NCBI GenBank assembly: GCA_052389415.1
Contig: JBQTHX010000030.1
Location: forward strand, 48,590 to 112,589
DNA from: Nitrosopumilaceae archaeon
GTDB lineage: Archaea > Thermoproteota > Nitrososphaeria > Nitrososphaerales > Nitrosopumilaceae
DNA: 64,000 bases
Direction of reading: 5' to 3'
Shown here: positions 53,879 to 64,000 of the stretch, piece after piece
Layout: each line of letters starts with the position of its first letter
Position numbering within the stretch: the stretch's first letter is position 1
Position numbers and translations under genes: made by a program
The notes under the pieces: model-generated
Told to the model about the DNA's origin: nothing
Database searches by the model: none
Seen by the model: the letters and a program-made list of their open reading frames with translations, nothing else

Positions 53879-54049
53879 ATGGTTCTATTATGGATTGGAA
53901 TAGCATTAGGGGCACTCATCACAATAGCACTAATCTATAAAATACTCAAGTCTTCAAAAACAAGCTACATTTCATTAAAGTGCACAAAATGCGGTTTTAA
54001 AACTAATGGTCTGAAATGTCCAATTTGTGAAAGTGAAAAAAGAATCTAG
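53879..54049 (+). CDS. 56-aa membrane-anchored zinc-ribbon protein (below ORF-track cutoff)
   Basis: MVLLWIGIALGALITIALIYKILKSSKTSYISLKCTKCGFKTNGLKCPICESEKRI; TATA-like TTATTAA about 25 nt upstream. Confidence 0.78.
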   Translation: MVLLWIGIALGALITIALIYKILKSSKTSYISLKCTKCGFKTNGLKCPICESEKRI

Positions 54050-54663
54050 ATTCTATAAATTGATTCGCCATATTCATTCTCAATCTTAGAACTCTTGATG
54101 TCAGGAATAGGAGACTGTAATCTTGCAATGCTTGCATTAACATTTATCTTCTTACATCCATCAGTGATGAATTTCTCTTGATGTATCTGGTCATATCCTA
54201 AAGCTATGATGTCGGGTCTTACCAAAGCTACTGTCTTGAAAATGTCGTCCTCATGTCCTATAGTGGCGTGATCCACCATCAAAAGTGAGTTCACAAGATC
54301 GCGTCTAAGCTCCATGTTGTGAAGCGGAAATCTATGCTTCATCTTTTTAGCAGTCTGATCAGTTGCTATCACAACTATGAGTACATTTCCTAAAGCTTTA
54401 GCTGCTCTTAGTGTATGTATATGTCCTGGATGAATTATATCGAAGACTCCTCCGGCAAGAACAACTCGTATTGATGATCTACCTAGATCAGTTAGTGTTT
54501 TTTTGTCATCTTCAACAATTCCAATTTTTACAAAAGATTCTATCTTTGCTTGCAGATGATCAATATTGACGGGAAGTTTTTTTCTAATTATTGAAATGGC
54601 ATCTCTATCTGAAATGGAGGAAATATACAACGCTGATATTATCTCTTTATCTAGGGCATCCAA
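54046..54663 (-). CDS. ribL: archaeal FAD synthetase (cytidylyltransferase family) with N-terminal winged-helix-like extension
   Basis: AGGVFDIIHPGH, VVIATD, RPDIIALGYDQ, KSSKI; about 63 extra N-terminal aa ending TLTDLGR. Confidence 0.82.
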   Translation of the reverse strand: MDALDKEIISALYISSISDRDAISIIRKKLPVNIDHLQAKIESFVKIGIVEDDKKTLTDLGRSSIRVVLAGGVFDIIHPGHIHTLRAAKALGNVLIVVIATDQTAKKMKHRFPLHNMELRRDLVNSLLMVDHATIGHEDDIFKTVALVRPDIIALGYDQIHQEKFITDGCKKINVNASIARLQSPIPDIKSSKIENEYGESIYRI

Positions 54664-54700: not shown

Positions 54701-55747
54701 CTATAAACTCTGTGCCCAAGGATCTATTCCTTTTGAAAAACGTAACGCGTCAATTAGTCCTTCAGCGTATCCTATACTTAAAATCGCCAACTCTTCTTTT
54801 CCTTGATTCTGAAATATTTCTGCATCATCAAGATAAAGTGCGGCATTTTCTAAAACTGATTTGAGATTTTCATCATTCCTAAAACGATTTGTAACATCGT
54901 TTAATGCCTTTCTTGCTTTTGGAATATATTTTTGTAACATCTGTTCGGAAATTTTTTTAATCTTTGAAGAATTGTCATAAGGTTCATCAATACATTTAGC
55001 GAGGATTTTTAGTGCATCAGATTCCGTAAAATGCATCTTCCCAGGAATTATAATAGTGTGAGGAGGTTTTCCAAAATCTGTGTTTTTTAAATTTGAAATC
55101 TTTCCTGCTACTATCCTTTGATTTTTCGCTCCAATTCTTGATGCTACCACGGCAAAAGTAGAATCTTCAATTAGATTTCTTTTCTGTTCACTTTCTGATG
55201 AAAGTAAACTGGCTAAAGCATCCTTTGGATTAAGGAAAAAATTTGCATCGTTATTGAATTCTAGAATTATCATAGTATGAGTCCCTGCCAATAAATTGTC
55301 ATAAAGTGTACTGTACACACTTGAAACCGAATTCTTGTCTTTCATCATAGTGACAACCTTTCCCATTTTGTAAAAATGGAAGCCACATTCACCAATTAGT
55401 GCGGTAATTGCAGATGCTGCATGGATGGTTTTTGTCAAGATCTTTTCTGAGATTGCTCTTGTTCGCAATTCTATATGGGTGGTAGCAATATAGGGGTCTC
55501 CATATGTAAGTAGTACGACCTGTTTCTTTTTTGCTTCTCTAAGAATGGTCTTTCCATCCTCTACTAACCATCGTGGAGCAGTTCGAAATTCATGTTTTAC
55601 CATCTTTTTGATCTTTATCAATTCAGACTTTGAAATTGGACTAGTAAAAATTTCAAGATAGACTCTGTCTGCTTTCTTGAGAATTTTTAATACATCGGAC
55701 CCAATTCCATCTGTACTAGAAATACCAAGACCCACAAACCAAAGCAT
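54701..55747 (-). CDS. dph5: diphthine synthase fused to a C-terminal DUF357-like domain
   Basis: MLWFVGLG, GDPYIATTH, YKMGK, GKPPH.IIIPG.MHF.E; tail A..YLDDA..F....LA..SIGYAEGLIDA. Confidence 0.92.
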   Translation of the reverse strand: MLWFVGLGISSTDGIGSDVLKILKKADRVYLEIFTSPISKSELIKIKKMVKHEFRTAPRWLVEDGKTILREAKKKQVVLLTYGDPYIATTHIELRTRAISEKILTKTIHAASAITALIGECGFHFYKMGKVVTMMKDKNSVSSVYSTLYDNLLAGTHTMIILEFNNDANFFLNPKDALASLLSSESEQKRNLIEDSTFAVVASRIGAKNQRIVAGKISNLKNTDFGKPPHTIIIPGKMHFTESDALKILAKCIDEPYDNSSKIKKISEQMLQKYIPKARKALNDVTNRFRNDENLKSVLENAALYLDDAEIFQNQGKEELAILSIGYAEGLIDALRFSKGIDPWAQSL

Positions 55748-55778
55748 AATCGAGTTGGAAAAATTGGTTATTTTGAGC

Positions 55779-56912
55779 TTACTCACTATGTTTTGATTTT
55801 GTGTGCAATCTCTTCAAGTGATACAACATGTGTTTGAAGACCTCTATGCTTCGTAGAAACTCATCAATTGAGACCCGTTCATCAATAGTATGAGATGCGT
55901 GGGGATCTCCAGGACCATAAGTTACTACCGGAATGTTTAACGCGTTTCCAATTATGTTCATATCTCCAGTTCCAGTTTTACGAATTAATTGAGGTCTTGA
56001 TTTTTCTACGTCTATCACGCCCAAAGTCAATGCCCTAACAAGTGGTGAATCATGAGGAGCTTCAAATGGTTCCGTCTCATCTAATATTGAGTAAAAGGCA
56101 CTGACTCCTTGGTTTTTTGCAACTTCCTGAACTGTTGTTGCAATTTTTTCTCCGACTGATTTACAGTTCATGTCTACAGGAATTCTAATGTCCATCACTG
56201 CATCACATTCTACGGCAGTCACGTTGTGACTTGTTCCTCCCCTGATCTCAGTTAGAGTGGCCGTGAGCAACATTCCTTTTGGTTTATCTGCCTGATTTCC
56301 TTCAAGCTCCTTTTTCAATGCGCTGATAAACACATAGACCTCATCAATTGCATTTTTTGCAAGCCATGGTGCACTTGCGTGTGCGCTATTTCCTACATTT
56401 ATTTTAAGATTGATGGCAATCCTTCCTTTGTAAGCTATAGTGATGTTTTTAATTCCACTTGGTTCGCCAAAAATTGCATAATCCAAGTCAATCTTTTGTT
56501 TTACGAGGCTCTTGATGCCAGTAGCGTTTCCCTCCTCATCTACTACCGCAGCAAAAACTACAGTGCCAGTATGATTTTGCATTGTTGCAGCAGCAAGAAG
56601 CATTGCCATTAGAGGAGCTTTTGCATCAGATGCACCTCGTCCATAAAGAAAACCATTGTCGTTTTTTACCTTGATTTTTCCAGGAACAGTATCCATGTGA
56701 CCACACAAAAGTATCTTCGGAGAACCAGAACCTTTTGTTGCAATCAGATTCCCTACCTCGTCTATGCGTATGTTTTCAAATCCTAAATCATCACATTTAT
56801 CTGCCAAAAATTCTGCCAATGGTTTTTCCGATAAGGAAGGTGTGTAAAGTCTTAGTGCCTTCTCAAGCATCTTTACAGAAAACCTAGGCGTTATAGTTAT
56901 TGAAGAGTCCAA
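55779..56912 (-). CDS. lysK: LysW-gamma-L-lysine/ornithine carboxypeptidase (M20)
   Basis: CGHMDTVPG, GRGASDAK, VDEE, GEPS, KTGTGDMN, YGPGD...HT.DE. Confidence 0.93.
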   Translation of the reverse strand: MDSSITITPRFSVKMLEKALRLYTPSLSEKPLAEFLADKCDDLGFENIRIDEVGNLIATKGSGSPKILLCGHMDTVPGKIKVKNDNGFLYGRGASDAKAPLMAMLLAAATMQNHTGTVVFAAVVDEEGNATGIKSLVKQKIDLDYAIFGEPSGIKNITIAYKGRIAINLKINVGNSAHASAPWLAKNAIDEVYVFISALKKELEGNQADKPKGMLLTATLTEIRGGTSHNVTAVECDAVMDIRIPVDMNCKSVGEKIATTVQEVAKNQGVSAFYSILDETEPFEAPHDSPLVRALTLGVIDVEKSRPQLIRKTGTGDMNIIGNALNIPVVTYGPGDPHASHTIDERVSIDEFLRSIEVFKHMLYHLKRLHTKSKHSE

Positions 56913-56915
56913 TTC

Positions 56916-57764
56916 TTATTTTCTCGATTTTAATGCGTATTCTATCATCAAGGCTGGAATATCTACACCAGTGACCCTTACAGTATTTTTGTATTCCGTT
57001 GTGTTATTTACTTCATGAACAACTAGCCCTTTTTCCTTACTTTCCATTAGATCTACGCCAACTATCTGTCCTTGAACAGCATTTTTTGCTTTAATGCAGA
57101 TATCTTCCAACTCTTTCGTAACCTTGCATTCCTCTGCCTTTCCACCAAGTGCCATGTTTGTTTTCCATTGTCCGTCTCCCGAATATCGATATATTGCAGC
57201 CACAACTTTGTCGCCTACTATTATAGCTCTAATATCACGCGGAGGTCTTTGGACAAATTCTTCAAGGTAATACACTTGGTATATTGGATACATCGTTTCT
57301 CTACTGTTCATGATTCCTTCCGCTGAATCATGATCTTTTAGTAAGGCGATCATTCTTCCCCAACTTCCAACAGTTGGTTTTAAAACCATCGGATATCCCT
57401 TGGATTCTAAAGTTTCAAGGGCGGTCTCTTCAGAAAACGCCACTGCACTAAACGGAGTAGGAATTCCATATTTCTGTAAAAGCATATGAGTAAACAGCTT
57501 GTTTCCTGCAAAGATACTTGTATTCAAAGAATTTATCACGTTGACTCCTTTTCCTTCAAGGGCAGCAGTAGAGTGTAAACTACGATAATAACTAACACAA
57601 CGTTGTATCACAGTTTCAAATTTTTCTTTTGTTTTATCCAAACTAACAGACAAATTCTTACAATCTACCATCTCCACACTAGCTCCATTTTTTTTTGCAG
57701 TGTCGTAGAGAGCTTTTTCTTCCCACCTGATGGTGTCGTAAAGAATCGATAATCCGGAGCTCAC
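56916..57764 (-). CDS. lysX: alpha-aminoadipate--LysW ligase (ATP-grasp)
   Basis: QRCVS, KPTVGSWGR, RDIR, WKTNMALGG, EVNNTTEYKNT (Asn-Thr signature typical of LysX). Confidence 0.9.
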   Translation of the reverse strand: MSSGLSILYDTIRWEEKALYDTAKKNGASVEMVDCKNLSVSLDKTKEKFETVIQRCVSYYRSLHSTAALEGKGVNVINSLNTSIFAGNKLFTHMLLQKYGIPTPFSAVAFSEETALETLESKGYPMVLKPTVGSWGRMIALLKDHDSAEGIMNSRETMYPIYQVYYLEEFVQRPPRDIRAIIVGDKVVAAIYRYSGDGQWKTNMALGGKAEECKVTKELEDICIKAKNAVQGQIVGVDLMESKEKGLVVHEVNNTTEYKNTVRVTGVDIPALMIEYALKSRK

Positions 57765-57925
57765 TGGCCCCAGTCCTCACCAACAGTTTGTGCTGGTTTC
57801 AACTCAAAGCCTGATGACCCTTTTGCTAATTCAAAGCTTGCACCACAATCTGGACATGTTATTATTTCTCCTTCGATTGCATCTTTTGGAGGAGTGATGG
57901 TTGCATCACAATCTAAGCATTTCAT
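57761..57925 (-). CDS. lysW: LysW amino-group carrier protein, copy 2, ending in EDWGQ (below ORF-track cutoff)
   Basis: MKCLDCDATITPPKDAIEGEIITCPDCGASFELAKGSSGFELKPAQTVGEDWGQ; last codons GAG GAC TGG GGC CAG TGA. Confidence 0.95.
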   Translation of the reverse strand: MKCLDCDATITPPKDAIEGEIITCPDCGASFELAKGSSGFELKPAQTVGEDWGQ

Positions 57926-57926
57926 C

Positions 57927-59117
57927 TTACTTTCCTGACTTTATCTTAATTTGGGAGTCATTAATTATCTTTTTTTCAAGTCTATCGTCTAATGGAATTT
58001 CAAGTAAATCCCCCATTCGTAGGTTCTTTAGTCCTGTTGCGACAGATTTCGCTTGTTCATCATTTTGCTCCAAACCCAAAAGTGACATGAGATAGGCAGC
58101 ACCATTTTTTCCTGCAAGTTCTCCAAAGACTATCCTTCTCCTGTTGCCTACAATTTTAGGCTCAATTGGTTCGTATGCAGCAGGATTTCTAAGAATTGCT
58201 GCTAAATGAGTACCAGCTTTGTGTTTGTAGGCTGTGGCACCCACTATTGGCTTGGAATCATATGGCTTGATATCAGTATATTGTTCAATTAATCGTGAGA
58301 GATCCATTAGCATATCTAATCTAAAATTATTTGGTGATTTGTATAGATAAGTAAGTGCCACTGCCGTCTCTGCCAATGCCGGGATTCCTGTTCGTTCACC
58401 AATTCCATCTATGGTGGTATGAATCTGGTCTGCACCACCATCACATCCTGCAAAAGCATTTGCTAATGCTAGCCCAATATCATTATGACAATGAACATCA
58501 AGCGGAGTCTTTATTTGCTCACGCACAGTTTTTACAAGATAATGCATCCCTACAGGTCTCATAATTCCAACAGTGTCTGGAATGCTTATCCGGTCTACAC
58601 CAGCTTCCTCAATTGCTTTACACATTTTGATCAAAAATGCTGGCTCAGCTCTACTGGCATCTTCCATAGTAAATCGCATTTTCAAACCATGTGATTTTGC
58701 GTACTCTACTGCTTCAACCGCACGCCGTAGCGCTTCTTCTCTTGAAATTCTCAATTTGTCTTTTAGATGAATGTCCGACATGCCAAGATATGTTGCCATC
58801 CATACAGCGTCACAATCAATTGCAACATCGATATCTTCCTTTAATGCACGCACGTGCGCAACTATGTCTGCTTTCAATCCTTGTTTGATTATTGTTTTCG
58901 TCGCTTCCTTGTGATCACTTGATACTACAGGAGAGATCTCTATCTGATCAACTCCAAAATAATCAAGCATCCATGCGATCTGAATCCGTTGTTTATTTGA
59001 AAAGGTAACTCCTGGATGCTGTTCGCCTTCTCTTAGTGTACTATCTAGTATGTGAATTTTCTTTGGTTTTGTGCCCATTGCATTATACTGATTTGCGTAG
59101 TAATTCGGATCTGTCAT
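57927..59117 (-). CDS. homocitrate synthase (LeuA/HCS family)
   Basis: DSTLREGEQ, PDTVG, HCHND, GIGERTG, HKAGTH; no LeuA regulatory domain; lies in the lys sub-operon; ATG 59117 fits the TATA spacing. Confidence 0.85.
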   Translation of the reverse strand: MTDPNYYANQYNAMGTKPKKIHILDSTLREGEQHPGVTFSNKQRIQIAWMLDYFGVDQIEISPVVSSDHKEATKTIIKQGLKADIVAHVRALKEDIDVAIDCDAVWMATYLGMSDIHLKDKLRISREEALRRAVEAVEYAKSHGLKMRFTMEDASRAEPAFLIKMCKAIEEAGVDRISIPDTVGIMRPVGMHYLVKTVREQIKTPLDVHCHNDIGLALANAFAGCDGGADQIHTTIDGIGERTGIPALAETAVALTYLYKSPNNFRLDMLMDLSRLIEQYTDIKPYDSKPIVGATAYKHKAGTHLAAILRNPAAYEPIEPKIVGNRRRIVFGELAGKNGAAYLMSLLGLEQNDEQAKSVATGLKNLRMGDLLEIPLDDRLEKKIINDSQIKIKSGK

Positions 59118-59143
59118 TGCTAATTTAGTACAAAAATTTACTG

Positions 59144-59173
59144 AATATAAACATATTCGTACTATTTTCGTCT
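59144..59173 (-). promoter_or_regulatory. internal promoter (TTTATATT) with upstream LysM-like box
   Basis: Plus strand GTACTATTTTCGTCT (59159-59173) is 12/15 identical to the palindrome GTACGA-TTT-TCGTAC; TATA at 59144-59151; located just downstream of lysM. Confidence 0.6.
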
Positions 59174-59234
59174 GATCTGACTCCATTCATATCGATCTTC
59201 GTCCTATCTGGAAAAAAGATTCTGAATTTCGTTT

Positions 59235-59654
59235 TTACGTTACAGTACGCAAAATTATGACGGTGTTAGTGTCAAAAACTCCAGGAACCTTGCGAAGAGA
59301 ATCGATACATGCGTTAATGTTTGTTATATTGGGTGCTTGAATTATCACTGCAATGTCGTACTGCCCAGTTATTTCATAAACAGTATTTACTCCTTGAAGC
59401 TTTGTTAATTTTGCAGAAACTTTTGATGTATCAATTGAAGAATCAACCGAGATTAAAATAATCGCACTCGTTGCATTTGCATCGCCAGTTTCTATTGTAA
59501 ATTTTTTTATTATTCCGCCATCAACAAGATTTTTGACTCTTCTTCTAACTGCGGATTCTGAAAGTCCCATTTTTTGACCTATCTCAACAAATGACTCTCT
59601 AGAGTTTTTTTTCAATGTCTCGATTATGAATTCATCTGTTCTGTCTCTAGACAT
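59235..59654 (-). CDS. lysM: Lrp/AsnC-family regulator LysM
   Basis: NSRESFVEIG...LSESAVRRRVKNL, YEITGQYDI, TNTVIIL; lies within the lys cluster. Confidence 0.9.
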   Translation of the reverse strand: MSRDRTDEFIIETLKKNSRESFVEIGQKMGLSESAVRRRVKNLVDGGIIKKFTIETGDANATSAIILISVDSSIDTSKVSAKLTKLQGVNTVYEITGQYDIAVIIQAPNITNINACIDSLRKVPGVFDTNTVIILRTVT

Positions 59655-60822
59655 TTCTACGCTTTTCCTCTCTGCCTAATACTGCATCAAGTACTTCTAA
59701 AGCTTTGTCTATATCAGACTCTGAGATTACAAGTGGAGGCAAAAGTCTTAGGATGTTTTTTCCTGAGTATAAAAATAAAATCCCATTAGCTATTCCATCA
59801 AATAAGATATCTTTGACTTCAAACTTGAGCTCCACTCCTATCATCAAGCCTTTGCCACGGATTTCACGAACTATCCTGTGTTTTTCTTTTAATTTCTCCA
59901 ATCCTTCTTGAAATTTCTCTCCAAGCTTTGCGGCATTTTCAACTAGTCTGTCCTGAGTTAAAGCATCTATTGTAGCTATTCCTGCAGCACATGAGAGAGG
60001 ATTGCCACCAAAAGTTGAGGATTGTTCTCCTTTACTTATACAAGCAAGAATTTCTGGTTTGACCAACGTTGCACCCATAGGCACTCCTCCGGCTATTCCC
60101 TTTGCAAGACACATGATGTCTGGAGTTGTTTTCCAGTGCTCGCCTGCCCACATTTTCCCTGTCCTTCCAAGTCCAGACTGAATTTCATCAAAGATCAACA
60201 GTATTCCTTTTTCATCACACAATTTTCTTGTTTCTTGAAGAAAACCATCTGGAGCGACATGAATACCGCTCTCTCCCTGAATCGGTTCAACTATTATGAA
60301 TCCAGTATCGGAGTTCACATTAGATCTTAGTGCATCAATATCTCCAAATGGAGAAAATGAAACTTTTTCTACAAGCGGTTCAAACGACTTGCGATATTTT
60401 GGATTAAATGTTAATGAAAGCGAACCAAGTGATTTTCCATGATAAGATCCATTTAATGCAAGCATTCCTGATTTTCCAGTAAACTTTCTTGCAAACTTTA
60501 TTGCAGCTTCAACAGACTCTGTTCCGCTGTTGTTCAGGTATGCTTGGCTTAGACTTTTTGGAGAAATTTTTATCAATTTCTCAAGAAACTCTTCACGGGT
60601 CTTGTTGTAAAGCGAACTGTGGACCGTAATTATTTTTTCAAGCTGATCCTGTAGAGCTTTTACGACACGTGGATTACGATGACCAACTAAAGCAACCCCA
60701 TATCCTCCCATGCAGTCGACATATTCTTTTCCATTTATGTCCCAAACATGAGCTCCAAGACCTCGTTCTATAGTAACAGGAAATCTTTGGTATATGTTTC
60801 CCATAAATTCGTCTTCAGTCAT
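59647..60822 (-). CDS. lysJ: LysW-semialdehyde aminotransferase (LysJ/ArgD)
   Basis: NSGTESVEAAIKFAR, EPIQGE, FDEIQSGLGRTG, LAKGIAGG, STFGGNPL, LRLLPPL; ATG 60822 overlaps the lysZ stop. Confidence 0.92.
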   Translation of the reverse strand: MTEDEFMGNIYQRFPVTIERGLGAHVWDINGKEYVDCMGGYGVALVGHRNPRVVKALQDQLEKIITVHSSLYNKTREEFLEKLIKISPKSLSQAYLNNSGTESVEAAIKFARKFTGKSGMLALNGSYHGKSLGSLSLTFNPKYRKSFEPLVEKVSFSPFGDIDALRSNVNSDTGFIIVEPIQGESGIHVAPDGFLQETRKLCDEKGILLIFDEIQSGLGRTGKMWAGEHWKTTPDIMCLAKGIAGGVPMGATLVKPEILACISKGEQSSTFGGNPLSCAAGIATIDALTQDRLVENAAKLGEKFQEGLEKLKEKHRIVREIRGKGLMIGVELKFEVKDILFDGIANGILFLYSGKNILRLLPPLVISESDIDKALEVLDAVLGREEKRRNV

Positions 60823-61619
60823 TTTGAAATCACCGTACAATTGTCGTTTGCAATTGCTACTGATATTGGATTTTCTCTCTGGCCATTTGAGATAAGAGCT
60901 TGTTGTACACCCATTTCTAGCGCTTCGGTAGCCGCTAGCACTTTCTTTTCCATTCCAAACCCAATCTTTGGGAGGATCTCTTTTGCCTCTGCTAGACTCA
61001 AATTTTTAACAAGCTTTTCATTCATTAACAATCCATCAACATTGGTCAAAAAAAGTATCTTGTCTGATTTCATAATTCCAGCAACATACGCTGCCGCCCT
61101 GTCACCATCTACATTAAGAAAGTCAAACTCCTCACTAATCGCAATTGGAGATATGACTGGAACATATCCTTGGTCTAATAATGATTTTATCAGACTAGTG
61201 TTTACGTTTTTTATCTTTCCAGTATAACCGCCATCAATTGCCATTTTTCTGCCCTTCTCATTGATTATCAGAAGTTTTTTCTTTCTTTCTGCCTGAATTA
61301 TTTGTCCATCTACACCTGATAGTCCTACTGCATTGATTCCATTTTTTTGCAACATGCGAACGATCATCTTGTTTATCTTTCCTGACATTACCATGGCAAA
61401 AATTTCTGCTGTCTCTTTGTCAGTATATCTGCTTTTTATTCCCCCAGGAGAAACAATGAATTTTGGTTCTTTACCAAGCGCTTCAGAAATTTTTGTTACT
61501 TCTTTACCTCCTCCATGTACAAGAATTATTTTTTCTTTTTGTGATACATTTTTGAGATCAGAAATTGTTGATGGATGAAGACCATCTACAACACTTCCTC
61601 CAATCTTAATTGTGATCAT
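60819..61619 (-). CDS. lysZ: LysW-aminoadipate/glutamate kinase (LysZ/ArgB)
   Basis: IKIGGS, VHGGG, SPGG..SRYTD, GGYTGK, LNVDGDRAA, GMEKK. Confidence 0.93.
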   Translation of the reverse strand: MITIKIGGSVVDGLHPSTISDLKNVSQKEKIILVHGGGKEVTKISEALGKEPKFIVSPGGIKSRYTDKETAEIFAMVMSGKINKMIVRMLQKNGINAVGLSGVDGQIIQAERKKKLLIINEKGRKMAIDGGYTGKIKNVNTSLIKSLLDQGYVPVISPIAISEEFDFLNVDGDRAAAYVAGIMKSDKILFLTNVDGLLMNEKLVKNLSLAEAKEILPKIGFGMEKKVLAATEALEMGVQQALISNGQRENPISVAIANDNCTVISK

Positions 61620-61623
61620 TTTT

Positions 61624-62676
61624 TTACACAGGTGTTAGCGGTGAATAATGAAGACCTTCCATCTCATCAAAGCCTGCCATCACATTCATATTTTGTATTG
61701 CAGAACCTGCAGCTCCTTTCATAAGATTGTCTGATGCTGACAATACAACTAATCTATTGTTGTCTTCATCTATGTCAAAACCAACATCACAGAAATTAGA
61801 TCCTACTACAAACTTTGGATCTGGAAACTTGTAGAATCCCTTTTTATCTCTAATCAATCTGATGAATTTTTCATTCTGATATTGTTCACGGTACATCTTC
61901 CAAAGATCCATCTCAGTTACCTGGGTTGTAAGAAAAGTGTGATTTGTACACAGAATTCCTCTCACTATATCTACTGCATGAGGACTCATCGATACCTTGA
62001 TTTTTTTTCCAGCAGCTATGCTCAATTCCTGCTCAATCTCACCTGTATGTCTATGCTTTGCAGGTTTGTACGGTCGAATTACTCCAGATCTCATTGCATG
62101 GTGTGTTCCTGCAACTGAACCAGCTCCTGCTCCTGATGAGCCAATTTTAGAATCAACTACTATGTGTTCAGTATCAATAATGCCCTTTTTCACAAGTGGA
62201 TAAAGAGCTAAAAGTGATGTTACTGCCATGCATCCAGGGCACGAAACAAGTTGGGCCTTTTTAATCTCTTCCCTGTGGAATTCCGGTACTCCAAAAACTG
62301 ATCTTGATAAAAGTTCAGGGTGTGGATGCTGCCAACCATACCATTTATCATAATCAGCAGCATTGTGTAATCGATAATCTGCACTAAGATCAATTACTTT
62401 CATTCCTCTGTCGTAGAGTGCCTTTACTATCTCAGTTGCCGTCCCATGAGGAACTGCAGTAAAAACTAGATCACACTTGTCTGACATCTTGTCATAATCA
62501 AGCTCAGAAAATGTCAAATCAATGAAACCTTTCAGACTTGGTTGAATCCTTGAGATGTATTCTCCTACATACTGTCTTGATGTGACCATTGAAATTTCTA
62601 CTTTGGGATGACTTACAAGTAACCTTAGCATTTCTCCACCGACGTAACCTGATGCACCTATTACTCCTATCCGCAT
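61624..62676 (-). CDS. lysY: LysW-gamma-acyl-phosphate reductase (LysY/ArgC)
   Basis: GASGYVG, DLSADYR, SCPGC, GSSGAG, HRHTGEI, GSNFCD, DNLMKGAAG. Confidence 0.94.
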   Translation of the reverse strand: MRIGVIGASGYVGGEMLRLLVSHPKVEISMVTSRQYVGEYISRIQPSLKGFIDLTFSELDYDKMSDKCDLVFTAVPHGTATEIVKALYDRGMKVIDLSADYRLHNAADYDKWYGWQHPHPELLSRSVFGVPEFHREEIKKAQLVSCPGCMAVTSLLALYPLVKKGIIDTEHIVVDSKIGSSGAGAGSVAGTHHAMRSGVIRPYKPAKHRHTGEIEQELSIAAGKKIKVSMSPHAVDIVRGILCTNHTFLTTQVTEMDLWKMYREQYQNEKFIRLIRDKKGFYKFPDPKFVVGSNFCDVGFDIDEDNNRLVVLSASDNLMKGAAGSAIQNMNVMAGFDEMEGLHYSPLTPV

Positions 62677-62706: not shown

Positions 62707-63564
62707 TTATCTTATAGCTGACTTGACAGCAAAATCAATCATCTCTTTTGGAATATTCTTTTTTGTCACTTTTGCCAAGCCTTTGAACTCTACAGTGTTG
62801 TTGATTTCATGCACTACTAGTCCCCGTTTTTCATCTTCCATTAAATCAACTCCAAGTATTCCGCCTCCAACTGCCTTGGATGCATTAATACAAATATCTT
62901 CAAGCTCCTTTGTTATTTCACAAGGCACAGGTTCTGCCCCAAGTGCTATGTTTGTTTTAAAACCTCCTGATGAAGTTCGATACATCGCAGCGATAACCTG
63001 GTCTCCTACAGAAATTGCTCGAATGTCACGTGGTGGACGATTTACCATTTCTTGTAAATAATAAATTCTATCTAGTGGGCCATCACTGAGTTCCCTTACT
63101 TCGATTATTGCATCTGCAGTATCTCTGTCCTTTAAGGCCATGACTCCTCTTCCCCAACTTCCAACTACGGGTTTTATGACCATTGGATATCCTACCTTCT
63201 CAAGGTTCTCAAGGGCTGTCTCAGATGAGAATGAAAAGTAAGTTTTTGGCGTAGGTACGTTGTGTTTTTTTAACAAAAGAGAGGTTATCATTTTGTTACC
63301 GCAATTACTAGCCACTGCAAATTTGTTTATGACTGGAACTTCAAGAAATTCTAGACATGCAGTAAAGTGTAGACCGCGAAAATAGCTAACACATCTTTCA
63401 AGAACGATATCGCCAAAATCAAAATCGCTTTTCTTACTTTCAGTATTGATTTGTGTTATCTTTGCATCAATCATCTTTGTATCGTGACCAAGCTCGATTG
63501 CTTCTTTCTCGAGCATTTTTTCCTCTAATCTAACTCTATCAAACACGACACGAATCTTTGACAT
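62707..63564 (-). CDS. argX: glutamate--LysW ligase (ATP-grasp, ArgX type)
   Basis: ERCVS, KPVVGSWGR, FKTNIALGA, EINNTVEFKGL (Gly-hydrophobic signature as in ArgX); downstream of argG. Confidence 0.8.
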   Translation of the reverse strand: MSKIRVVFDRVRLEEKMLEKEAIELGHDTKMIDAKITQINTESKKSDFDFGDIVLERCVSYFRGLHFTACLEFLEVPVINKFAVASNCGNKMITSLLLKKHNVPTPKTYFSFSSETALENLEKVGYPMVIKPVVGSWGRGVMALKDRDTADAIIEVRELSDGPLDRIYYLQEMVNRPPRDIRAISVGDQVIAAMYRTSSGGFKTNIALGAEPVPCEITKELEDICINASKAVGGGILGVDLMEDEKRGLVVHEINNTVEFKGLAKVTKKNIPKEMIDFAVKSAIR

Positions 63565-63732
63565 TTATTCTCCCCAATCTTCTCCAACTTTTTCCGCTTG
63601 CTTTAGCTGGCATGTAGAACCATTCTTTGATGCTATCTCGAAATCTGCTCCACAATCAGGGCATGAAACTATTTCTCCAACGGTTGCATCTTCTGGAACA
63701 TTTAATTTTGCATCACATTCTGGGCAATTCAT
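63565..63732 (-). CDS. lysW: LysW amino-group carrier protein, copy 1, canonical EDWGE end (below ORF-track cutoff)
   Basis: MNCPECDAKLNVPEDATVGEIVSCPDCGADFEIASKNGSTCQLKQAEKVGEDWGE. Confidence 0.96.
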   Translation of the reverse strand: MNCPECDAKLNVPEDATVGEIVSCPDCGADFEIASKNGSTCQLKQAEKVGEDWGE

Positions 63733-63743
63733 TTTTTACTCTT

Positions 63744-64000
63744 TCACCTCTTTTTTAGTAATTTATTAGCTTCTGTGGATTGCATTCCCCACAGCTCGAC
63801 AAATCCTTTTGCCAAAGTTTGGTCGAAGGTCGAACTAGATCCGTATGTTGCCAAGTCATGGCTATACAATGAATAATCTGATTTTCTTCCAACAACTCTT
63901 AGACTTCCTTTGAACATCTTCAGCTTTACAGTTCCGTTTACTCTCTTTTGTGAGGTATTGATAAACATATCTAAATCAGATCTTAATGGATCCTGCCATA
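63744..64000 (-). CDS. argG: argininosuccinate synthase, C-terminal end (5' part outside window)
   Basis: WQDPLRSDLD.FI..SQKRVNGTVKLKMFKG...VGRKS.YSLY..LATY...FDQ..AKGFVELWG. Confidence 0.92.
   Translation of the reverse strand, partial: WQDPLRSDLDMFINTSQKRVNGTVKLKMFKGSLRVVGRKSDYSLYSHDLATYGSSSTFDQTLAKGFVELWGMQSTEANKLLKKR

Follow-up and report, generated by a model that had tools for sequence, protein, structure and literature searches.

The last 10 kb of the window, by which we mean the whole analyzed stretch of 64,000 nt, carry on the minus strand a full set of genes for making lysine and arginine by the carrier-protein route. In the order of transcription, the set consists of the 3' end of argG, a lysW gene with a product ending in EDWGE, an argX-type gene, lysY, lysZ, lysJ, the gene for a LysM-type regulator, hcs, a second lysW gene with a product ending in EDWGQ, lysX, and lysK (Table 1). 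Only 1 nt separates the end of hcs from the Q-ended lysW gene, which is followed by lysX and lysK, and the third base of the terminal Gln codon CAG is also the first base of the GTG start codon of lysX (overlap CAGTGA). The preliminary description of this DNA had pointed to this tight packing between hcs and lysX and had argued that a GAG codon would suit the overlap equally well. Six relatives (L086, L094, L097, L103, L105, and L122) indeed carry GAGTGA.

Table 1. Genes of the lysine/arginine cluster in the window, with the profile matches on which their assignment was based.
Feature	Position	Strand	Evidence and remarks
lysK, M20 [LysW]-lysine hydrolase	55779..56912	-	TIGR01902 subfamily, 257.7 bits (cut-off 163)
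lysX, RimK-family ATP-grasp ligase	56916..57764	-	TIGR02144 LysX_arch, 334 bits (cut-off 275.6); GTG start
lysW paralog 1	57761..57925	-	54 aa; C-terminus GEDWGQ (CAG TGA); Q-ended carrier of the window
hcs/lysS, homocitrate synthase	57927..59186	-	TIGR02146, 382.9 bits (under cut-off 413.6); assigned by family and context
LysM-type Lrp/AsnC regulator	59235..59654	-	NF040947, 185.4 bits (cut-off 180)
lysJ/argD, aminotransferase	59647..60840	-	TIGR00707, 424.7 bits (cut-off 410)
lysZ, [LysW]-aminoadipate/[LysW]-glutamate kinase	60819..61619	-	NF010662, 301 bits (cut-off 194)
lysY/argC, reductase	61624..62676	-	TIGR01850, 426 bits (cut-off 233.6)
argX-type LysX paralog	62707..63564	-	TIGR02144, 304 bits; argG-linked (arginine) clade of the ligase tree
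lysW paralog 2 (argW-type)	63565..63732	-	55 aa; C-terminus GEDWGE; NF041070, 88.6 bits
argG, argininosuccinate synthase, 3' end	63744..64000	-	NF001770/TIGR00032, profile positions 313-396; cut at window end

The true start of hcs is probably an internal ATG near 59117, since the homologs in the loci of relatives begin with MSLKSDDPNYY. The lysX product contains a GSWGR motif, has 3vpd, 1uc8, 5k2m, and 3vpb as its nearest solved structures, and groups with the hcs-linked clade in the ligase tree. LysK reached 263 bits against NF003367, which is under the equivalog cut-off of 363. The genome from which the window derives (94% complete) has two LysW genes and no credible third one, and the E-ended LysW adjoins argX, 5.6 kb upstream of the Q-ended gene. 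LysK has no second homolog in this genome and is a single-copy gene. LysZ also gave one strong match only, and since it is present as a single copy, it must be common to both carriers.

The Q-ended carrier and its terminal codon

The open reading frame at 57761..57925 translates to MKCLDCDATITPPKDAIEGEIITCPDCGASFELAKGSSGFELKPAQTVGEDWGQ. It contains two CxxC pairs (C3/C6 and C24/C27), has a net acidic character (10 acidic versus 4 basic residues), and its 3' codons read ggt gag gac tgg ggc CAG TGA. The product matched the NCBIfam profile NF041070 (carrier_LysW_Arch) with 79.2 bits at a cut-off of 75 and was absent from the matches of TIGR01206 (lysW) at E ≤ 1e-5. Pfam PF21344 is precomputed on its homologs. 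These data confirmed the preliminary description of an otherwise intact LysW that ends in EDWGQ. Both CxxC pairs and EDWG were invariant in an alignment of nine sequences. Typical of the LysW family are a terminal Glu in EDWGE and an adjoining LysX or ArgX ligase together with lysZ, lysY, lysJ, and lysK. The carrier of the window has kept EDWG but has Gln as its last residue, while the ligase and the other genes are present and relatives show the same order. We filed it as a LysW variant because its terminal residue is Gln rather than Glu; it is a non-canonical member of the family.

The dN/dS ratio of the Q-ended lysW was about 0.09 (0.087, from 285 usable pairs out of 400 sampled among 80 genes), with synonymous sites close to saturation in this pair set (mean dS 0.98). 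The codon of an internal Gln, Q46, was also conserved. We concluded that the Q-ended lysW is intact and under strong constraint.

A word-indexed search in a large protein collection returned 109 homologs, of which 100 ended in EDWGQ, 1 in EGWGQ, and 2 in EDWGE (the near relatives P0100 and P0101). The remaining 6 had aberrant ends: 5 were chimeric or adaptor-like, and P0054 continues beyond the Gln. From a scan of species-representative genomes, we used the best 80 of 529 confirmed matches as loci. All of these 80 were from named Nitrosopumilaceae (Nitrosotalea, Nitrosarchaeum, Nitrosopumilus, or unclassified), the nearest being 96% and 94% identical to the lysW of the window. CAG was followed by TGA in every one of these 80 loci, while the preceding Gly codon varied between GGC, GGA, and GGG. 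Gln-ended LysW in other thaumarchaea, to which the preliminary description had alluded, was found in 80/80 of the best loci.

Positions 57761-57766 were covered by contigs from four public runs. No other letter was seen at the CAG codon, as the preliminary description had proposed to check, although across 501 bases the same contigs show 22 other differences to the window; three of the runs are from other studies (relatives, different strains), and one is from a study that is possibly the source of this DNA. Public RNA data sets for this stretch were looked for as well, and none was listed. The preliminary description had also named GAG in close relatives, as a sign of an error or a private mutation, and relaxed selection as observations that would speak against a meaningful Gln codon. 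What we found was CAG-TGA in all of the 80 loci and a dN/dS of 0.087.

The assumption that the Gln is due to a sequencing or assembly error or to a mutation private to this genome found no supporting point. It is contradicted by the 80 named relatives, by the identical codon in the contigs of all four runs, and by the presence of the Q pattern in 224 of the 301 genomes of the class. Sequencing error, private mutation, and gene decay are excluded.

Distribution of Gln and Glu tails

The 301 class genomes were scanned with two degenerate DNA patterns, which stood for EDWGQ and for EDWGE, each followed by a stop codon. A control pattern read backwards gave no match in the Q scan and one match in the E scan. 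The tallies include three unpublished genomes, which do not affect them. The last codon of the pattern (TRR) also admits TGG, so that two hits in a genome that was not checked by sequence may be an overcount; the second match in genome G120 was false for this reason.

In the family of the window (f1), the Q pattern was present in 178 of 180 genomes and the E pattern in 175 of 180. The sister family f3 showed the Q pattern in 39/39 and the E pattern in 12/39 genomes. Both patterns were found in all five genomes of genus g23 of family f2, and the remaining four f2 genomes had no Q pattern and two E matches each. Families f4 and f6 together had the Q pattern in 0/4 and the E pattern in 4/4 genomes, family f5 in 1/4 and 4/4, respectively, and nine families of other orders in 0/64 and 45/64. 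The paralog tabulation that had been suggested earlier thus revealed conservation of Gln beside hcs and lysX in 178/180 f1 genomes, as judged by pattern.

We then checked 48 loci from 25 of the scanned genomes. The hcs-linked carrier was Q-ended in f1, in seven f3 genera, in one f5 genus, and in one f2 genus. It was E-ended in sisters of the Q genera, in one f3 genus, and in G131, a single reverted f1 genome (GAGTGA). Among these 48 loci, the argG-linked carrier was Q-ended in five f3 genera and E-ended elsewhere. The argG-linked Q carriers use CAA or CAG, have TAA, TAG, or TGA as the stop codon, and show no GTG overlap, which argues for selection on the amino acid and not on the DNA. All four combinations of lysine- and arginine-linked tails were seen, and genus g33 reverses the arrangement of the window, with an E-ended hcs-linked and a Q-ended argG-linked carrier. 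The earlier framing of a Gln beside hcs and lysX was too narrow, since argG-linked Gln occurs in several genera and g33 has the opposite order. All 14 genomes of genus g31 gave two Q-pattern matches and no E-pattern match. Two of them (G184 and G235) were checked by sequence and have exactly two LysW genes each, located behind hcs and behind argG, respectively, and both Q-ended.

On a maximum-likelihood tree of 64 ligases, for which 55 near-identical f1 rows were left out of 119 pairs, the tail state changed at least eight times. Switching between Glu and Gln affects both the lysine-linked and the arginine-linked paralogs.

The Q pattern was also searched in 401 genomes at the phylum level. 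It was found in 13/16 genomes of family f23, in 9/27 of f29, in 1/6 of f22, and in one genome each of f44 and f50. By profile search, five genomes from f23, f29, and f44 have exactly one LysW, and this is Q-ended. The lysX gene directly follows lysW in four of these five genomes and lies about 185 nt downstream in the fifth (G461). The order lysZ-lysW-lysX-lysJ was present in three of these loci, two of which also contain lysY. The f50 locus also shows a Q-ended LysW, while the f22 locus (L145 in G335) matched the DNA pattern but yielded no LysW with our filter for open reading frames (≥40 aa, tail [ED][ED][WFY]G). Among the 149 best of 764 hits of the profile search (E ≤ 0.001), 93 ended in GE and 19 in GQ, and 37 were truncated or unreadable; one Q-ended representative belongs to Candidatus Caldarchaeum. 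The Gln tail is a recurrent state of the family and not a peculiarity of one clade.

Function and maturation of the Q-ended carrier

Passages of PMC10433800 describe the terminal Glu of LysW as crucial and conserved in four aligned homologs, and the Natrinema argW(E54A) mutant as an arginine auxotroph, which indicates that the terminal carboxylate is needed in the canonical pathway. Alpha-aminoadipate was shown on the terminal Glu of LysW in PMC12998189. The view of the preliminary description that canonical ligation to the gamma-carboxyl group is impossible from an encoded Gln was supported.

Since the g31 genomes and the single-LysW genomes have Q-ended carriers alone, these carriers must function, as judged from gene content. 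Searches for ArgJ and for the DAP epimerase DapF gave no hit in five genomes (that of the window and four of g31), while they succeeded in 10/14 and 9/14 control genomes, respectively. The partner enzymes did not follow the tail. None of 356 LysX columns changed in all four contrasts between Q and E sisters, and the five columns that changed in three contrasts were at variable terminal positions and shared no common residue. For LysK, three contrasts were compared over 467 columns; 2 of these columns differed each time, but no residue was consistent. In the reverted f1 genome G131, LysX and LysK were 94% and 95% identical to their Q-partnered neighbors. The E and Q tails are interchangeable without retooling of the enzymes. 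Because the tail flips without such retooling and the clusters contain no extra gene, the ability to use Gln looks intrinsic to the core enzymes. In the genome of the window, one LysZ and one LysK serve E and Q carriers alike; the mature forms of both carriers should therefore be chemically alike.

We propose that the Q-ended LysW is a Pup-like pro-carrier whose terminal Gln would be converted to Glu by a single deamidation, with LysK as the probable enzyme, and assign a probability of roughly 0.55 to this reading. The case for deamidation is one of exclusion and analogy. Translation would yield a pro-form ending in EDWG-Gln, with a Gln side chain that is formally gamma-glutamyl-ammonia. An amidohydrolase would strip off the ammonia once per carrier molecule and expose the gamma-carboxylate of a terminal Glu. 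The ordinary cycle could then follow: LysX would couple alpha-aminoadipate to LysW with ATP, LysZ, LysY, and LysJ would process the substrate while it is tethered to the carrier, and LysK would free lysine and restore LysW-Glu. One such step per molecule would suffice, since all subsequent rounds end with LysK restoring the Glu form. Spontaneous deamidation usually passes through an imide, which requires a backbone nitrogen after the Gln; at the C-terminus this nitrogen is missing, so that an enzyme would be expected. We infer that LysK is the candidate and the most likely deamidase, because it already cleaves the gamma-amide of this residue and accompanies the system in every case; it accounts for about two thirds of the probability given above.

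Some observations are less easily reconciled with this proposal. The lack of tail-tracking substitutions in LysK fits an intrinsic activity but would equally fit a LysK that is not involved. M20 enzymes of the LysK type usually bind the amino acid that they release, and ammonia would give them nothing comparable to hold. Effortless activation would predict free drift of the tail, yet within f1 the hcs-linked carrier has Gln in 178/180 and the argG-linked carrier Glu in 175/180 genomes (pattern counts). Such stable tail states within f1 hint at a lineage-specific advantage, and the pro-carrier reading does not supply one. Only C-G transversions are allowed at the tail position, which slows drift, and weak selection and a low mutation rate are inseparable here. 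Gln could confer a lineage-specific benefit, for example through licensing or by discriminating between the two ligases, but the occurrence of all four tail combinations leaves this idea unsupported.

The ligases might instead use the LysW-Gln carboxamide directly, forming an acyl-phosphate or an equivalent with release of ammonia, and the first round would then proceed without a deamidase. This could be achieved with bound ADP and phosphate, comparable to gamma-glutamyl transfer by glutamine synthetase or to Dop, or by using ATP to activate the amide oxygen. Such a reaction would account for Q tails that arose repeatedly in distant lineages, in clusters without an extra gene, and it fits the translational coupling of lysW-Q to lysX in all of the best 80 of 529 loci, which are from Nitrosopumilaceae. 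Precedent comes from Dop, which acts on PupQ via a phosphate-derived acyl-phosphate (PMC8599861). However, the ATP-grasp fold differs from the glutamine-synthetase-like fold of Dop and PafA, and with no tracking substitution in LysX, the same active site would need to perform both chemistries. Activation of a carboxamide is not known to us for any ATP-grasp enzyme. We consider direct use of the carboxamide doubtful. The same holds for the broader alternative that LysX and ArgX swap the carboxamide ammonia for the substrate amine (in a phosphate-mediated or amide-activating reaction) or that Gln acts as a licensing switch until an enzyme or the nitrogen state activates the carrier, to which we give only a small share of the probability.

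Retention of the Gln, with the substrate attached to the alpha-carboxylate as by RimK on S6, or with a Glu first added to the alpha-carboxylate, is quite improbable. LysX does belong to the RimK family (TIGR00768), and the alpha-carboxylate is the sole free carboxylate of the terminal residue, but the single-copy LysZ and LysK would have to handle E and Q carriers in one cell. Moreover, the at least eight switches between Glu and Gln, once between ligases that are 94% identical, occurred without a co-varying LysX residue. An added Glu would also shift the EDWGE register that is read by the GSWGR motif of the ligase, as outlined in a passage of PMC10433800. The option of alpha ligation or added Glu in the preliminary description is disfavored on these grounds.

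The preliminary description had also considered a non-loadable decoy. In such a scenario, the Q carrier would be a decoy or regulator competing for LysZ, LysY, LysJ, and LysK or for LysX, and the E-ended paralog would carry both pathways. The genome of the window does have an E-ended carrier at a distance of 5.6 kb, and a single LysW runs both pathways in Sulfolobus (as cited in a passage of PMC6038301). This scenario is contradicted for the clade as a whole by genomes with Q-ended carriers alone, such as those of g31, four of which were tested and lack ArgJ and DapF, by the single Q-tailed LysW in genomes of three other families, and by the reversed arrangement in g33; we regard it as very improbable also for the window. 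Also very improbable is the explanation that Glu is put in at the Gln codon during translation, with the Glu-ended minority as the sole active carriers: archaea form Gln-tRNA(Gln) from Glu-tRNA(Gln) by the indirect pathway and few active molecules of a recycled carrier might suffice, but most of a strongly conserved protein would be left inert and competing for enzymes, and the last codon is not singled out, the internal Q46 codon being likewise conserved.

Of the interpretations offered in the preliminary description, the pro-carrier is thus favored, the decoy is refuted, and the alpha linkage is disfavored, so that its interpretation is partly supported.

Comparison with known systems

The string EDWGQ did not occur in the literature searched, which did not comprise the founding LysW papers, and a search for LysW deamidation returned nothing except one unrelated review. 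By title and abstract, none of the publications on LysW, C-terminal, and glutamine deals with a Gln tail, and those on LysW and Thaumarchaeota do not raise it. The words "Gln" and "glutamine" were absent from the passages of PMC12998189 and PMC10433800 that were searched, and the searched passages of PMC11726168 use "Gln" for residues of other proteins alone. The N. maritimus metabolic model takes a working LysW pathway for granted. Within the searchable part of the literature, Gln-ended LysW is unreported; earlier knowledge is possible in the alignments of the founding papers.

The lysine-linked carrier is Gln-encoded in 178 of the 180 sampled f1 genomes, against Glu as the attachment point in PMC10433800 and PMC12998189. 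This would imply either an unreported maturation step, in which case nature would have arrived at the Pup logic twice, the second time with unrelated proteins, or new ligase chemistry. If the ligase takes the carboxamide directly, the reaction type would be new to the ATP-grasp LysX/ArgX family. If the licensing switch is true, a post-translational step would gate how some of Earth's most abundant archaea make lysine and arginine. Annotation and metabolic models silently presume a loadable carrier, and the Gln tail bears on both.

We compared the window with the LysW/ArgW systems of Thermus thermophilus, Sulfolobus/Sulfurisphaera, Thermococcus kodakarensis, and Natrinema gari. The carrier of the window resembles LysW/ArgW in its size, its zinc ribbon with two CxxC pairs, its acidic body, and its EDWG tail, and the neighboring genes hcs, lysX, lysK, lysZ, lysY, lysJ, and the gene for the LysM regulator are also shared. 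In contrast to these systems, the carrier encodes Gln where the gamma-carboxylate of Glu is the attachment point, and the genome keeps a second, E-ended paralog.

The RimK/S6 system is similar in that RimK and LysX belong to one family (TIGR00768; solved relatives 4iwx and 5zct) and in that the ligase modifies a small protein at its C-terminus. While RimK adds glutamates at the alpha-carboxylate of S6, there is no sign of an alpha linkage in the window, and the common downstream enzymes argue against it.

In Pup, a terminal Gln occurs in some actinobacteria, and Dop, the enzyme that also acts as depupylase, deamidates this PupQ to PupE ahead of ligation (PMC8599861). No homology to Pup, Dop, or PafA was found; the proteins of the window match the LysW, RimK/ATP-grasp, and M20 families only. 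Pup is disordered, and Dop and PafA are glutamine-synthetase-like, whereas in the system of the window the carrier is a zinc ribbon, the ligase is of the ATP-grasp type, and the hydrolase is of the M20 type. The partner amine is a metabolite in the LysW system and a protein lysine in the Pup system. Deamidation of LysW is a proposal here. Common to both systems are a small protein with a terminal gamma-carboxylate that is ligated to an amine with ATP and the alternation between Glu and Gln among relatives.

Carrier complement in genera g24 and g13

We found only one LysW carrier protein in the protein search of genome G120, which belongs to genus g24 of the sister family f3. This carrier is linked to the homocitrate synthase gene and ends in Gln. 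The degenerate DNA pattern for an EDWGE end followed by a stop codon matched none of the eight g24 genomes scanned. Either the tail of the arginine-linked carrier has diverged in g24, or a single Gln-ended carrier serves the whole genus.

In genus g13, a member of the family of the window, a second LysW was seen at loci L129 (genome G070) and L130 (genome G153), and it is likewise Gln-ended, with the tail AETIGEDWGQ. It is a solitary gene with no ligase downstream, and an iron-type alcohol-dehydrogenase-like gene lies on the opposite strand. The scan for the EDWGE-stop pattern gave 0 matches in both genomes.

Aberrant LysW entries in the protein collections

Several metagenome-derived LysW homologues (P0083, P0096, P0103, P0106, P0107, P0148, P0164, P0171 and P0183) have tails that continue into residues of the kind CLLYTSDAADE or VSYTHLTLP. 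These entries look like translated sequencing-adaptor chimeras, and they inflate the class of LysW proteins ending in neither Gln nor Glu. The 90%-identity clusters of P0100 and P0200, which group LysW proteins of 55 aa, also hold members of 305, 451 and 452 aa that carry the name RNA polymerase subunit alpha or ribosomal protein S1. Gene-call fusions or artefacts of the clustering probably account for these long members.

Gene starts and neighbors of the lysine cluster

The features of this region are listed in the table.

Features in and downstream of the lysine cluster of the window
Feature	Position	Strand	Basis
205-aa protein, N-terminal helix-turn-helix-like part and cytidylyl/adenylyltransferase domain	54046-54663	-	TIGR00125
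Diphthine synthase (dph5)	54701-55786	-	TIGR00522 over residues 14-264
Homocitrate synthase, ORF as listed	57927-59186	-	5' end ~23 codons longer than homologues
lysJ/LysM regulator gene overlap, 8 nt	59647-59654	-	ORF coordinates, tight packing
lysZ/lysJ overlap, 22 nt	60819-60840	-	ORF coordinates, tight packing

Homologues of the homocitrate synthase begin near MSLKSDDPNYY, and the start of the gene is likely to lie near 59117. The score of the protein does not reach the equivalog cut-off of the homocitrate synthase model, and isopropylmalate/citramalate synthase models matched it too. The dph5 ORF as listed shares 8 nt with the end of lysK, but translation probably begins at an ATG farther downstream (MLWFVGLG...). 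For its C-terminal extension of ~100 aa the family-model search returned no family match. The 205-aa protein is possibly an FAD synthetase of the RibL type.
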